Shown here: piece after piece, positions 1,344 through 36,683 of the stretch
How positions within the stretch are numbered: the stretch's first letter is position 1
Layout of the letters: every line of letters begins with the position of its first letter
Source: Escherichia coli
GTDB taxonomy: Bacteria; Pseudomonadota; Gammaproteobacteria; Enterobacterales; Enterobacteriaceae
Length of the DNA stretch: 64,000 bases
NCBI RefSeq assembly: GCF_048403405.1
Contig: NZ_CP183129.1
Strand: one strand, 5' to 3'
Made by a program: the position numbers and the translations under genes
Notes under the pieces: model-generated
Databases searched by the model: none
Told to the model about the DNA's origin: nothing
What the model saw: only the letters and a program-made list of their open reading frames with translations

Positions 1344-2943
<1,600 letters not shown>

Positions 2944-2947
2944 GTTC

Positions 2948-3499
2948 ATGCAAACGAAAAAAAATGAAATTTGGGTGGGTATCTTTTTATTAGCAGCACT
3001 ACTGGCGGCGCTGTTTGTTTGCCTGAAGGCGGCGAACGTGACGTCCATACGTACTGAACCGATCTACACGCTTTATGCGACGTTCGATAACATTGGCGGC
3101 CTGAAAGCGCGCTCTCCGGTCAGCATTGGTGGTGTTGTTGTGGGCCGGGTGGCGGATATTACGCTGGACCCGAAAACCTATCTGCCGCGCGTAACGCTGG
3201 AAATTGAACAACGTTATAACCACATTCCTGATACCAGTTCGCTGAGCATTCGTACTTCCGGCCTGCTGGGGGAACAATATCTGGCATTAAACGTCGGTTT
3301 TGAAGACCCGGAACTGGGGACTGCTATCCTGAAGGATGGCGATACAATTCAGGACACCAAGTCTGCGATGGTGCTGGAAGATCTTATTGGTCAGTTCCTT
3401 TACGGTAGTAAAGGCGATGACAATAAGAATAGTGGCGATGCGCCAGCTGCTGCGCCAGGTAATAATGAAACCACTGAACCTGTGGGTACAACGAAATAA
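2948..3499 (+). CDS. mlaD: Phospholipid ABC transporter substrate-binding protein MlaD (MCE domain)
   Basis: ORF-track entry 2933..3499 trimmed to ATG 2948 (MQTKKNEIWVGIFLL...), 183 aa, N-terminal TM anchor plus MCE domain. Confidence 0.93.
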   Translation: MQTKKNEIWVGIFLLAALLAALFVCLKAANVTSIRTEPIYTLYATFDNIGGLKARSPVSIGGVVVGRVADITLDPKTYLPRVTLEIEQRYNHIPDTSSLSIRTSGLLGEQYLALNVGFEDPELGTAILKDGDTIQDTKSAMVLEDLIGQFLYGSKGDDNKNSGDAPAAAPGNNETTEPVGTTK

Positions 3500-4152
<653 letters not shown>

Positions 4153-32331: not shown

Positions 32332-33216
32332 ATGAAGCCTTTTTTGCGCTGGTGTTTCGTTGCGACAGCACTTACGCTTGCAGGATGCAGTAATACTTCC
32401 TGGCGTAAAAGTGAAGTCCTCGCGGTACCATTGCAACCGACTTTACAGCAGGAAGTGATTCTGGCACGTATGGAACAAATCCTTGCCAGTCGGGCTTTAA
32501 CCGATGACGAACGCGCACAGCTTTTATATGAGCGCGGAGTGTTGTATGATAGTCTCGGTCTGAGGGCATTAGCGCGTAACGATTTTTCGCAAGCGCTGGC
32601 AATCCGACCGGATATGCCTGAAGTATTCAATTACTTAGGCATATATTTAACGCAGGCAGGCAATTTTGATGCTGCCTATGAAGCGTTTGATTCTGTACTT
32701 GAGCTTGATCCAACTTACAACTACGCGCACTTGAATCGCGGGATCGCATTATATTACGGCGGTCGTGACAAGTTAGCGCAAGATGATCTGCTGGCGTTTT
32801 ATCAAGACGATCCCAATGATCCTTTCCGTAGTCTGTGGCTTTATCTCGCCGAGCAGAAGCTCGATGAGAAGCAGGCTAAAGAAGTGTTGAAACAGCACTT
32901 CGAAAAATCGGATAAGGAACAGTGGGGATGGAACATTGTCGAGTTCTACCTGGGCAACATTAGCGAACAAACGTTAATGGAAAGGCTCAAGGCGGACGCA
33001 ACGGATAACACCTCGCTCGCTGAGCATCTCAGTGAAACCAACTTCTATTTAGGTAAGTACTACCTAAGTCTGGGGGATTTGGACAGCGCCACGGCACTGT
33101 TCAAACTGGCGGTTGCCAACAACGTTCATAACTTTGTTGAGCACCGATACGCATTGTTGGAATTATCGCTCCTGGGCCAGGACCAAGATGACCTGGCAGA
33201 ATCGGACCAGCAATAG
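32332..33216 (+). CDS. nlpI: TPR-repeat outer membrane lipoprotein NlpI
   Basis: 294-aa ORF with lipobox LAGC near the N-terminus and TPR repeats. Confidence 0.96.
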
Positions 33217-33322
33217 CTGACGTACACATCAGCCCGTAATCTTTTTTGATTGCCATCACCTTAACGGGTGAGGGCGTTGTTGTTCGTTAATACACCTACT
33301 TTGAGCCGGTTCACACTTTTCA

Positions 33323-33403
33323 ATGAAAATTGCTGATCAATTTCATGATGAGTTATGTAGACTGGCCGCCATTAATTTTGAGGCACACGTACTACATGGC
33401 TGA
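33323..33403 (+). CDS. yrbN: Small ORF (26 codons) overlapping the deaD start, candidate YrbN
   Basis: ATG 33323 to TGA 33401-33403 encodes [26 protein letters not shown]; its stop overlaps the deaD ATG (ATGGCTGA); position corresponds to the annotated E. coli small protein YrbN, recalled from memory. Confidence 0.5.
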
Positions 33404-35285
33404 ATTCGAAACCACTTTTGCAGATCTGGGCCTGAAGGCTCCTATCCTTGAAGCCCTTAACGATCTGGGTTACGAAAAACCATCTCCAATTCAGGCAGAG
33501 TGTATTCCACATCTGCTGAATGGCCGCGACGTCCTGGGTATGGCCCAGACGGGGAGCGGAAAAACTGCAGCATTCTCTTTACCTCTGCTGCAGAATCTTG
33601 ATCCTGAGCTGAAAGCACCACAGATTCTGGTGCTGGCACCGACCCGCGAACTGGCGGTACAGGTTGCTGAAGCAATGACGGATTTCTCTAAACACATGCG
33701 CGGCGTAAACGTGGTTGCCCTGTACGGCGGCCAACGTTATGACGTGCAATTACGCGCCCTGCGTCAGGGGCCGCAGATCGTTGTCGGTACTCCGGGCCGT
33801 CTGCTGGACCACCTGAAACGTGGCACTCTGGACCTCTCTAAACTGAGCGGTCTGGTTCTGGATGAAGCTGACGAAATGCTGCGCATGGGCTTCATCGAAG
33901 ACGTTGAAACTATTATGGCGCAGATCCCGGAAGGTCATCAGACCGCTCTGTTCTCTGCAACCATGCCGGAAGCGATTCGTCGCATTACCCGCCGCTTTAT
34001 GAAAGAGCCGCAGGAAGTGCGCATTCAGTCCAGCGTGACTACCCGTCCTGACATCAGCCAGAGCTACTGGACTGTCTGGGGTATGCGTAAAAACGAAGCA
34101 CTGGTACGTTTCCTGGAAGCGGAAGATTTTGATGCGGCGATTATCTTCGTTCGTACCAAAAACGCGACTCTGGAAGTGGCAGAAGCCCTTGAGCGTAACG
34201 GCTACAACAGTGCCGCGCTGAACGGTGACATGAACCAGGCGCTGCGTGAGCAGACACTGGAACGACTGAAAGATGGTCGTCTGGACATCCTGATTGCGAC
34301 CGACGTTGCGGCCCGTGGCCTGGACGTTGAGCGTATCAGCCTGGTAGTTAACTACGATATCCCGATGGATTCTGAGTCTTACGTTCACCGTATCGGTCGT
34401 ACTGGTCGTGCGGGCCGTGCTGGCCGTGCGCTGCTGTTCGTTGAGAACCGTGAGCGTCGTCTGCTGCGTAACATTGAACGCACCATGAAGCTGACCATTC
34501 CGGAAGTTGAACTGCCGAACGCAGAACTGCTGGGCAAACGTCGTCTGGAAAAATTCGCCGCTAAAGTACAGCAGCAGCTGGAAAGCAGCGATCTGGATCA
34601 ATACCGTGCACTGCTGAGCAAAATTCAGCCGACTGCAGAAGGTGAAGAGCTGGATCTCGAAACTCTGGCCGCCGCACTGCTGAAAATGGCACAGGGTGAA
34701 CGTACTCTGATTGTTCCGCCAGATGCGCCGATGCGTCCGAAACGTGAATTCCGTGACCGTGATGACCGTGGTCCGCGCGATCGTAACGACCGTGGCCCGC
34801 GTGGTTACCGTGAAGATCGTCCGCGTCGTGAACGTCGTGATGTTGGCGATATGCAGCTGTACCGCATTGAAGTGGGCCGCGATGATGGTGTTGAAGTTCG
34901 TCATATCGTTGGCGCGATTGCTAACGAAGGTGACATCAGCAGCCGTTACATTGGTAACATCAAGCTGTTTGCTTCTCACTCCACCATCGAACTGCCGAAA
35001 GGTATGCCGGGTGAAGTGCTGCAACACTTTACGCGTACTCGCATTCTCAACAAGCCGATGAACATGCAGTTACTGGGCGATGCACAGCCGCATACTGGCG
35101 GTGAGCGTCGTGGCGGTGGTCGTGGTTTCGGTGGCGAACGTCGTGAAGGCGGTCGTAACTTCAGCGGTGAACGCCGTGAAGGTGGTCGTGGTGATGGTCG
35201 TCGTTTTAGCGGCGAACGTCGTGAAGGCCGCGCACCGCGTCGTGATGACTCTACCGGTCGTCGTCGTTTCGGTGGTGATGCGTAA
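33396..35285 (+). CDS. deaD: Cold-shock DEAD-box RNA helicase DeaD (CsdA)
   Basis: 629 aa from ATG 33396 ([33 protein letters not shown]...), motifs [25 protein letters not shown] and RGG-rich C-terminal tail; ORF-track start 33330 is an upstream extension. Confidence 0.97.
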
Positions 35286-35309
35286 TCATCGCTAAACAGC
35301 GAACACAAT

Positions 35310-35386
35310 CTGTAAAATAATATATACAGCCCCGATTTTTACCATCGGGGCTTTTTTTCTGTCTTTTGTACTCGTGTACTGGTACA
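35310..35386 (+). promoter_or_regulatory. mtr control region: candidate TyrR box and TrpR operator
   Basis: TGTAAA-ataata-TATACA (35310-35327) resembles a TyrR box (TGTAAA-N6-TTTACA); GTACTCGTGTACTGGTACAG (35367-35386) is a trp-operator-like GTAC repeat about 55 bp upstream of the mtr ATG; mtr is known to be TrpR- and TyrR-regulated. Confidence 0.5.
35326..35358 (+). terminator. Intrinsic terminator after deaD
   Basis: AGCCCCGAT-TTTTACC-ATCGGGGCT hairpin followed by TTTTTTT. Confidence 0.8.
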
Positions 35387-35438
35387 GTGCAATACATAAC
35401 AACGCAGTCGCACTATTTTTCACTGGAGAGAAGCCCTC

Positions 35439-36683
35439 ATGGCAACACTAACCACCACCCAAACGTCACCGTCGCTGCTTGGCGGCGTGGTGATTATCGG
35501 CGGCACCATTATTGGCGCAGGGATGTTTTCTCTGCCTGTGGTCATGTCCGGGGCGTGGTTCTTCTGGTCAATGGCGGCGCTGATCTTTACCTGGTTCTGT
35601 ATGCTGCATTCCGGCTTGATGATTCTGGAAGCTAACCTGAATTACCGAATCGGTTCTAGCTTTGACACCATCACCAAAGATTTGCTGGGCAAAGGCTGGA
35701 ATGTAGTCAATGGCATTTCCATTGCCTTTGTGCTCTATATCCTGACTTACGCCTATATTTCTGCCAGCGGTTCGATTCTGCATCACACCTTCGCGGAGAT
35801 GTCGCTGAACGTCCCTGCACGGGCAGCGGGTTTTGGTTTTGCACTACTGGTGGCGTTTGTGGTGTGGTTGAGCACCAAAGCGGTCAGCCGGATGACGGCG
35901 ATTGTGCTGGGGGCGAAAGTTATTACCTTCTTCCTCACTTTCGGTAGCCTGCTGGGACATGTGCAGCCTGCGACATTGTTCAACGTCGCCGAAAGCAATG
36001 CGTCTTATGCACCGTATCTGTTGATGACCCTGCCGTTCTGTCTGGCGTCGTTTGGTTATCACGGTAACGTGCCAAGCCTGATGAAGTATTACGGCAAAGA
36101 TCCGAAAACCATCGTGAAATGCCTGGTGTACGGTACGCTGATGGCACTGGCGCTGTATACCATCTGGTTGCTGGCGACGATGGGCAACATCCCTCGTCCT
36201 GAGTTTATTGGCATTGCCGAGAAGGGTGGTAACATTGATGTGCTGGTACAGGCATTAAGCGGCGTGCTGAACAGCCGTAGCCTGGATCTTCTGCTGGTCG
36301 TGTTCTCAAACTTTGCGGTAGCGAGTTCGTTCCTTGGCGTAACGCTGGGTTTGTTTGACTATCTGGCAGATCTGTTTGGTTTCGACGACTCGGCTATGGG
36401 CCGTTTGAAAACAGCGTTGCTGACCTTTGCCCCGCCTGTTGTGGGTGGCCTGCTGTTTCCTAACGGATTCCTGTACGCCATTGGTTATGCTGGCTTAGCG
36501 GCTACCATCTGGACGGCAATTGTTCCGGCGCTGTTGGCCCGCGCATCGCGTAAACGCTTTGGTAGCCCGAAATTCCGCGTCTGGGGCGGCAAGCCGATGA
36601 TTGCGCTGATTCTGGTGTTTGGCGTTGGCAACGCACTGGTGCATATTTTATCGAGCTTTAATTTGCTGCCGGTGTATCAGTAA
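35439..36683 (+). CDS. mtr: Tryptophan-specific permease Mtr
   Basis: 414-aa polytopic [45 protein letters not shown]... of the HAAAP aromatic amino acid permease family. Confidence 0.96.

Follow-up and report, generated by a model that had tools for sequence, protein, structure and literature searches.

A degenerate in-frame tandem repeat encoding the C-terminal tail of the Escherichia coli RNA helicase DeaD, and its length alleles

The 3' end of deaD in Escherichia coli is a degenerate, in-frame tandem repeat that occurs in seven non-standard lengths among complete genomes, all of which preserve the reading frame and the end of the protein. The best overall explanation, to which we assign a probability of roughly 0.8, is that an old and degenerate peptide repeat, written in very few codons, is prone to slippage, and that the resulting changes in length are tolerated in what is putatively an RNA-binding extension of the helicase. 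The repeat was analyzed in a window, meaning the whole 64,000-nucleotide stretch of E. coli DNA under study (contig NZ_CP183129.1); all coordinates refer to this window and to its plus strand unless stated otherwise.

Genomic context and domain organization

The deaD (csdA) coding sequence occupies positions 33396-35285 according to the RefSeq annotation and Pfam, and encodes 629 amino acids plus a stop codon from an ATG start at MAEFETTF. Open reading frames for nlpI and mtr lie upstream and downstream of it in the window, in agreement with the E. coli context pnp, nlpI, yrbN, deaD, mtr, an order that is annotated alike in four E. coli genomes. A terminator-like hairpin followed by a T run is found 3' of the stop codon (35328-35359) and belongs to the context of the gene, outside the repeat. 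The identification of the gene as deaD in the preliminary description is borne out both by its Pfam domains and by annotation: of the 5,426 complete E. coli genomes, 5,425 contain a match (96-100% identity) to a 601-nt query over the 3' end of deaD, and the feature under the match is named deaD in all 5,425.

Five Pfam families (DEAD, Helicase_C, DeaD_dimer, DbpA and DeaD_C) are found in the protein, each above its cut-off. The helicase core consists of PF00270 DEAD (aa 30-196, E = 3.3e-52) and PF00271 Helicase_C (aa 232-340, E = 2.5e-32), the dimerization domain is PF25399 DeaD_dimer (aa 374-443), and a folded RNA-binding domain of the DbpA type (PF03880, aa 489-558, E = 1.3e-20; 34860-35069) directly precedes the tail. 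The core, the dimerization domain with a DbpA-type RNA-binding domain after it, and the gene context are together those of a dimeric DEAD-box RNA helicase of the DeaD/CsdA type. The RNA-binding domain is near-invariant in an alignment of 37 Enterobacterales sequences and is predicted by AlphaFold2 to be RRM-like, with a beta-alpha-beta-beta-alpha-beta arrangement. Its sequence is identical to that of PDB entry 5B88 ('ATP-dependent RNA helicase DeaD'), which stops at Q564; this entry is the sole structure of this part of DeaD and holds the RNA-binding domain alone, so that no solved structure covers the tail.

The C-terminal tail

The repeat-built tail (aa 568-629; 35097-35282) coincides with PF12343 DeaD_C, the 'DeaD helicase C-terminal disordered region', which matches at 45.6 bits (cut-off 23.3), with profile positions 1-62 of 62 aligned to aa 568-629. 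It is PF12343 itself in its type organism, a curated region of a textbook protein that was already known, and the tail protein encoded in the window is identical to that of K-12, the two DNA alleles differing at synonymous sites only. The intrinsic disorder that gives the family its name is also predicted here: in an AlphaFold2 model built on the 37-sequence alignment, aa 567-629 carry no secondary structure, and pLDDT is about 37-40 per 10-residue block (below 50 throughout).

The 63 tail residues include 20 Gly, 19 Arg, 7 Glu, 4 Asp and 4 Phe, and the net charge is +8. With 11 acidic residues in the tail, the unit GERREGGR is one of mixed charge, and units of the GERREGGR type were indeed encoded as had been proposed, GERREGR among them. 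The earlier label 'RGG-rich' is loose, since the 63 residues hold a single RGG tripeptide and three RG dipeptides; the tail is therefore better described as R/G/E-rich and mixed-charge than as a canonical RGG box. Thandapani et al. in 2013 reportedly took a di- or tri-RGG motif to be two or three RGGs spaced by 0-4 residues, and a di-RG motif to be at least two RG dipeptides 0-4 residues apart. Its single RGG leaves the tail outside the di- and tri-RGG classes, and RGGGRG at tail positions 6-11 places it in the di-RG class, the weakest of them.

Structure of the repeat

The preliminary description had proposed three to four degenerate repeats of about 36-45 bp. Four units are in fact present, with a period that differs somewhat from this estimate: units 1 and 2 (35097-35129 and 35130-35162) are each 33 nt long and encode 11 residues, unit 3 (35163-35207) is 45 nt long and encodes 15 residues, and unit 4 (35208-35282) is a longer and degenerate stretch of 75 nt, or 25 residues, that carries the conserved end RRR(FGG)DA. 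All three DNA strings that had been quoted as repeat copies were recovered, starting at 35130, 35166 and 35211. The sequence GCGGYGARCGYCGTG is found in four in-register copies at 35098, 35131, 35164 and 35209, which gives spacings of 33, 33 and 45 nt. Tandem Repeats Finder (TRF) reports an array at 35098-35192 with a period of 33 nt, 2.9 copies, 72% matches, no indels and a score of 106.

Shorter direct repeats lie within these units. A 15-nt unit, TGGCGGTGAGCGTCG, followed by a partial copy, TGGCGGTG, occupies 35096-35118; a perfect 18-nt repeat, GGCGAACGTCGTGAAGGC, is present at 35133-35150 and again 78 nt downstream at 35211-35228; a 12-nt repeat, GGTGGTCGTGGT, is present at 35115-35126 and 35181-35192; an 8-nt repeat, GCGTCGTG, at 35105-35112 and 35237-35244; and a pair of GTCGT motifs 12 nt apart at 35140-35156. 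The abundance of short perfect direct repeats in codon register follows from a repeated peptide that is encoded by very few codons (CGT, GGT or GGC, and GAA).

Length alleles among E. coli genomes

The standard 1,890-nt deaD is carried by 95.7% of genomes. A tail of another length was found in 235 of the 5,426 complete E. coli genomes (4.3%), in a census that counts genomes and not events, that is inflated by clonal sampling for the +12 and +15 alleles, and that indels of 3-9 nt, or indels ending at repeats shorter than 7 nt, could escape. Length polymorphism between strains, as had been anticipated, is thus present, rare though it is. All seven alleles change the length by a multiple of three and leave the conserved C-terminal end RRRFGGDA intact, and every end point falls at a direct repeat of 5-18 nt.

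Most variant genomes carry +12 or +15. The +12 allele (158 genomes, including EAEC 042 and an O7:H15 ST70 strain) has 12 extra nucleotides between the two GTCGT motifs and adds EGGR, while +15 (48 genomes, concentrated in strains labelled ST361) has a second copy of TGGCGGTGAGCGTCG and adds GGERR. A third copy of the same 15-mer, adding GGERR twice, gives +30 (2 genomes), and its loss, removing GGERR, gives -15 (2 genomes). Full copies of TGGCGGTGAGCGTCG therefore number 0, 1, 2 and 3 in the -15, standard, +15 and +30 alleles, respectively. The remaining alleles are larger deletions. In -66 (3 genomes), two 33-nt units are lost between the two 12-mers GGTGGTCGTGGT; in -78 (21 genomes), the deletion runs between the two perfect 18-mers GGCGAACGTCGTGAAGGC, copy 1 being its left and copy 2 its right end point, and leaves two of the four units; and in -132 (1 genome), a deletion between the two 8-mers GCGTCGTG removes nearly all units and leaves 18 residues of the tail. 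The carrier of -132 is a clinical isolate, and thus viable despite the near-complete loss of units. Its 585-aa DeaD is named generically by the NCBI pipeline as 'DEAD/DEAH family ATP-dependent RNA helicase'. Gains of whole units (+33, +45, +66 or +78) were not seen among the genomes matched by a pooled query of 82 predicted junctions.

Counting of alleles

Allele counts were obtained with junction-specific queries of 41-45 nt, chosen to have no 28-mer in common with standard alleles, together with the matches listed for each query. Variant-allele queries of 100-121 nt are unfit for this purpose, since two pieces of a standard allele are joined into a match of full coverage. The pooled query of predicted deletion and duplication junctions revealed -15 and -66; about 500 further matches were false positives that stemmed from SNP haplotypes outside its exclusion set, and the four of these that were inspected (H335, H341, H344 and H350) were all of standard length. 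Counts by identity band from three independent longer queries are consistent with the junction counts. For example, one longer query gave 22 genomes with coverage below 80% and 162 in the 90-95% identity band, and another gave 210 genomes, that is, 162 + 48, in the latter band. It should be noted that identity bands are suited to indels in the middle of a query, and that +15 and +30, which lie near the end of the first of these two queries, are hidden in it.

Origin and inheritance of the alleles

The position of every end point at a short direct repeat is what slippage or short-homology recombination predicts, and the repeat had been described beforehand as prone to slippage, a view that this pattern and the recurrence of -78 on different haplotypes both support. 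The series of zero, one, two and three copies of the 15-mer is a classic signature of stepwise slippage. We infer that replication slippage or short-homology recombination generates the alleles, and that they persist because the disordered tail tolerates changes in length. Under the proposed mechanism, the tail would consist of an 11-residue unit repeated in tandem and in frame, old and by now degenerate; the short repeats within it would mispair during replication, either by slipped-strand mispairing or by RecA-independent short-homology recombination, and as a result 12-132 nt would occasionally be gained or lost in frame. Since the tail lacks a fold that could be disrupted, the protein would tolerate such changes.

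Among four -78 carriers of different source, pairwise differences in deaD amount to 15-39 of 1,812 sites, and the window's standard allele is about equally distant from them (28-35 sites). The allele is present on at least three different deaD haplotypes, and the simplest reading of these sequences would be that -78 arose independently more than once. Transfer of the allele by homologous recombination could also account for its recurrence, and is less favoured because some of the sites that differ among the carriers lie no more than about 100 nt from the deletion. The many ST361-labelled strains among carriers of +15 suggest clonal inheritance of that allele, and both +12 and +15 are probably inherited clonally, such that their genome counts do not equal numbers of events.

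Tail variation across the Enterobacterales

In a scan between species, with each species represented by one genome, 80 Enterobacterales loci were recovered. The tail is present in all 80 and ranges from 55 to 99 aa, with strong differences between genera. GER[RK] units number one to five per tail, with none in the Xenorhabdus sequence, and a TRF score of at least 50 was obtained for 53 of the 80 tails, the commonest period being 33 nt (22 species). Local duplications are also evident; for example, the tails of Klebsiella, Kluyvera and Raoultella contain PRRDD(A/S)xAPRRDD, and that of Salmonella arizonae contains RRFSGE twice. This comparison indicates that the repeat is old, family-wide and continually remodelled by indels.

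Possible selection on tail length

Among the alternatives to a tolerated, slippage-prone repeat, the one that survives best, though we consider it unlikely, is that the tail-length alleles are functionally distinct and selected by lineage, for instance through RNA affinity, condensates or the range of growth temperature. The retention of the tail in 80 of 80 species would fit this idea, as would the strong differences in length between genera, the excess of synonymous over non-synonymous sites within E. coli (12 versus 2, see below) and the concentration of +15 in ST361-labelled strains. However, neutral hitch-hiking would be just as likely to concentrate alleles in lineages, the -132 allele is viable in a clinical isolate, and a tail-less CsdA construct is active in vitro, retaining ATPase and unwinding activity according to PMC11850223 (which summarizes Xu 2017). 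A more specific version, in which the allelic series from -132 to +30 is non-neutral and tunes RNA binding and condensation in the cold, and in which -78, +12 and +15 reflect lineage selection, appears less likely still.

It is very improbable, in our estimation, that the repeat is a contingency locus in which frequent slippage switches or tunes DeaD as adaptive bet-hedging by phase variation. Several alleles do exist, -78 sits on several haplotypes and the 15-nt unit varies stepwise from zero to three copies, as such a locus might show. On the other hand, all seven alleles are in frame and retain the conserved end; no tail allele shifts the frame or acts as an on-off switch, and since nothing is switched off, the repeat is not a phase-variation locus. 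The variable units measure 12-132 nt and are degenerate, at 72% match, unlike a homopolymer or a short perfect microsatellite, and a single length prevails in 95.7% of genomes. Four sequenced derivatives of the parental isolate EC0026B also share one allele.

Chance similarity and nucleotide-level explanations

A tail with 20 Gly and 19 Arg among 63 residues, in a gene where 61 of 78 Arg codons are CGT and 57 of 60 Gly codons are GGT or GGC, might look repetitive by chance without being a true repeat, a suggestion that is scarcely credible given that in-frame shuffles of the 63 tail codons average a TRF score of 39.7 (sd 15.1) and reach the observed score in only 3 of 2,000 cases, so that the periodicity exceeds what composition alone provides, and given also the four in-register copies at spacings of 33, 33 and 45 nt and the recurrence of a 33-nt period in 22 other species. 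Tandem-repeat detection thus gave a significant result, and the array is confirmed as a real, degenerate, in-frame tandem repeat.

The similarity of the units in DNA is fully explained by the protein repeat together with the strong codon bias of deaD (in addition to the Arg and Gly codons given above, 43 of 54 Glu codons are GAA). When the same tail protein was written with codons redrawn from deaD usage, 857 of 2,000 versions (43%) reached the observed TRF score, the mean being 82. As so many redrawn versions score as high, there is no surplus of DNA identity that would hint at recent duplication, gene conversion or selection on DNA or RNA. Homogenization of the units' DNA by recent duplication or gene conversion was considered as a source of their similarity and was rejected on the same grounds, as codon-redrawn versions score equally.

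These results also bear on the idea that the repeat is an element acting in DNA or RNA (for instance an array bound by a protein, an sRNA or a structured element of the 3' mRNA), or that it encodes an overlapping or antisense protein. An antisense open reading frame of 110 aa (34976-35308) and one of 71 aa in frame +2 (35080-35295) overlap the repeat, and the RNA of 35094-35285 has a predicted fold of -77.9 kcal/mol; both observations could be cited in favour of this idea, which nevertheless seems hardly tenable. The fold has a z-score of -0.63, with 44 of 200 shuffles at least as stable, and a search of Rfam over 33000-35700 brought no family near threshold, the best E-values (0.36-0.69) falling in the terminator, outside the repeat. 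The units are no more alike in DNA than expected from the protein repeat and codon usage, and the additional antisense and +2 frames are an expected by-product of a repeat of stop-poor codons. Finally, it is the deaD reading frame that is under selection in the tail: eight E. coli haplotypes of standard length vary at 14 tail sites, of which 12 are synonymous third positions of that frame and 2 are non-synonymous. The DNA repeat would thus have no role of its own, in keeping with the preferred reading of a peptide repeat written in few codons.

Relation to known systems

In PMC11850223, CsdA is described as a core, a dimerization domain and an RBD made up of the RRM and the C-terminal tail, the RBD being the main RNA anchor, and the arrangement of core, dimerization domain and RBD is presented as common to Hera, CshA and CsdA. 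From summaries of the literature in later papers and from its composition, we lean towards regarding the tail as a putative auxiliary extension that binds RNA non-specifically and multivalently and promotes condensation. Its position beside the DbpA-type domain would let it strengthen RNA affinity, increase local concentration and favour condensates.

The tail described here and the PF12343 DeaD_C of E. coli DeaD/CsdA are the same region, with no difference in kind, and the census of length alleles is a detail added to it. Other bacterial DEAD-box helicases with basic disordered C-terminal extensions, namely RhlE and SrmB as well as Hera and CshA, whose tails come after the RBD, are built on the same plan: a helicase core with an accessory RNA-binding extension and, beyond it, a basic disordered tail. 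Their sequences are unrelated to that of DeaD; the GERREGGR repeat and the RRRFGGDA end were encountered solely in the Enterobacterales DeaD sequences that the analysis covered. Eukaryotic RGG/RG regions, such as those of FUS, Dbp2/DDX5 and Ded1/DDX3, resemble the DeaD tail in being disordered and rich in Arg and Gly with interspersed aromatic residues (the four Phe in DeaD), in adjoining an RNA-binding or helicase module and in having a reported link to condensates. They differ from it in that the DeaD tail is built of mixed-charge GERREGGR units, has one RGG and lies outside the di- and tri-RGG definition. Arginine methylation is typical of eukaryotic RGG boxes and is not known in the DeaD tail.

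The repeat can also be compared with bacterial VNTRs and coding minisatellites, with which it shares a head-to-tail arrangement in codon register, alleles bounded by direct repeats and a sub-unit that varies stepwise. Its head-to-tail copies are statistically supported, and its length alleles between strains end in repeats, as in VNTR-like loci. In contrast to VNTR typing loci, it is far more degenerate (72% match) and far less variable (4.3% of genomes), and most events use short sub-repeats and not whole units. The DeaD tail repeat thus behaves like a weak coding VNTR.

Conclusions

The deaD tail repeat is real, ordinary and known, and in-frame indels are expected in degenerate coding repeats of this kind; the allele census is the new detail and is of modest practical use. 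The importance of the finding for discovery is small. For annotation, it means that DeaD proteins of 585-639 aa should not be called truncated or mis-assembled. The DeaD tail also provides a small worked example of a tandem repeat in DNA that is purely a by-product of a peptide repeat and codon bias, and the alleles -132, -78, -66, -15, +12, +15 and +30 form a ready-made series of tail lengths for studies of RNA binding, condensates and growth in the cold.

Features flanking and within deaD

The 5' end of deaD, the cold-shock RNA helicase gene (window 33396-35285, plus strand), is overlapped by 8 nt by yrbN, a small gene of 26 codons on the same strand that is annotated as 'protein YrbN' in all four of the E. 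coli genomes fetched. Its position in the window, approximately 33323-33403, was derived from its offset to deaD at one of these fetched loci, L008, where yrbN occupies 2246-2326 and deaD 2319-4130. The mechanically called deaD reading frame also extends upstream on the plus strand through 33330-33395, adding 22 codons 5' of the annotated ATG and reaching a TTG; RefSeq places the start at the ATG at 33396, giving a protein of 629 aa.

Apart from its repeat-built C-terminal tail, DeaD contains a second low-complexity stretch, an Arg/Asp-rich linker (aa ~447-482, window ~34734-34841, plus strand) that lies between the dimerisation and RNA-binding domains and carries DRGPR twice. This linker has low pLDDT in the AlphaFold2 model, and between genera it is as rich in indels as the C-terminal tail.

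The intergenic stretch from the deaD stop codon to mtr contains, at window 35328-35359, a 9-bp GC-rich hairpin (AGCCCCGAT...ATCGGGGCT) with a T run after it, and this element has a terminator-like score on both strands. Two weak, sub-threshold Rfam sRNA matches overlap it, and these probably reflect mere resemblance to a terminator.

DeaD tails in other taxa

The deaD locus of Salmonella enterica subsp. arizonae CCUG 6322T (L075) contains an 18-nt in-frame duplication within the DeaD tail; slippage at this locus has thus yielded, in a genus other than Escherichia, a product unlike those of E. coli. Enterobacterial deaD was also present in a record titled 'Chryseobacterium sp. 18061'. Its DeaD tail almost matches the one in a second record of that project, 'Citrobacter sp. 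18056' (the two loci of this pair are L066, CACSKA010000008.1, and L074, CACSJR010000005.1), and mislabelling or contamination of the assembly is the probable cause.

Tail-length alleles in E. coli

When window 34800-35400 was used as the query against 5,426 complete E. coli genomes, a single genome gave no match to it; in the same search, one record matched on a plasmid. Strain FXCREC035 (NZ_CM135826.1, locus L003) carries a natural allele 132 nt shorter than the standard 1,890-nt gene and encodes a DeaD of 585 aa. The NCBI pipeline names this product generically, as 'DEAD/DEAH family ATP-dependent RNA helicase' rather than DeaD; evidently, loss of the tail repeats alone suffices for the specific name to be dropped.

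Among the longer in-frame alleles, +15 is concentrated in strains whose labels read ST361 or '361', including many clinical isolates. The +12 allele is carried by EAEC 042, by a strain of serotype O7:H15 and ST70, and by many further strains. Judged by these strain labels, the length of the DeaD tail might provide a simple marker of lineage in E. coli.
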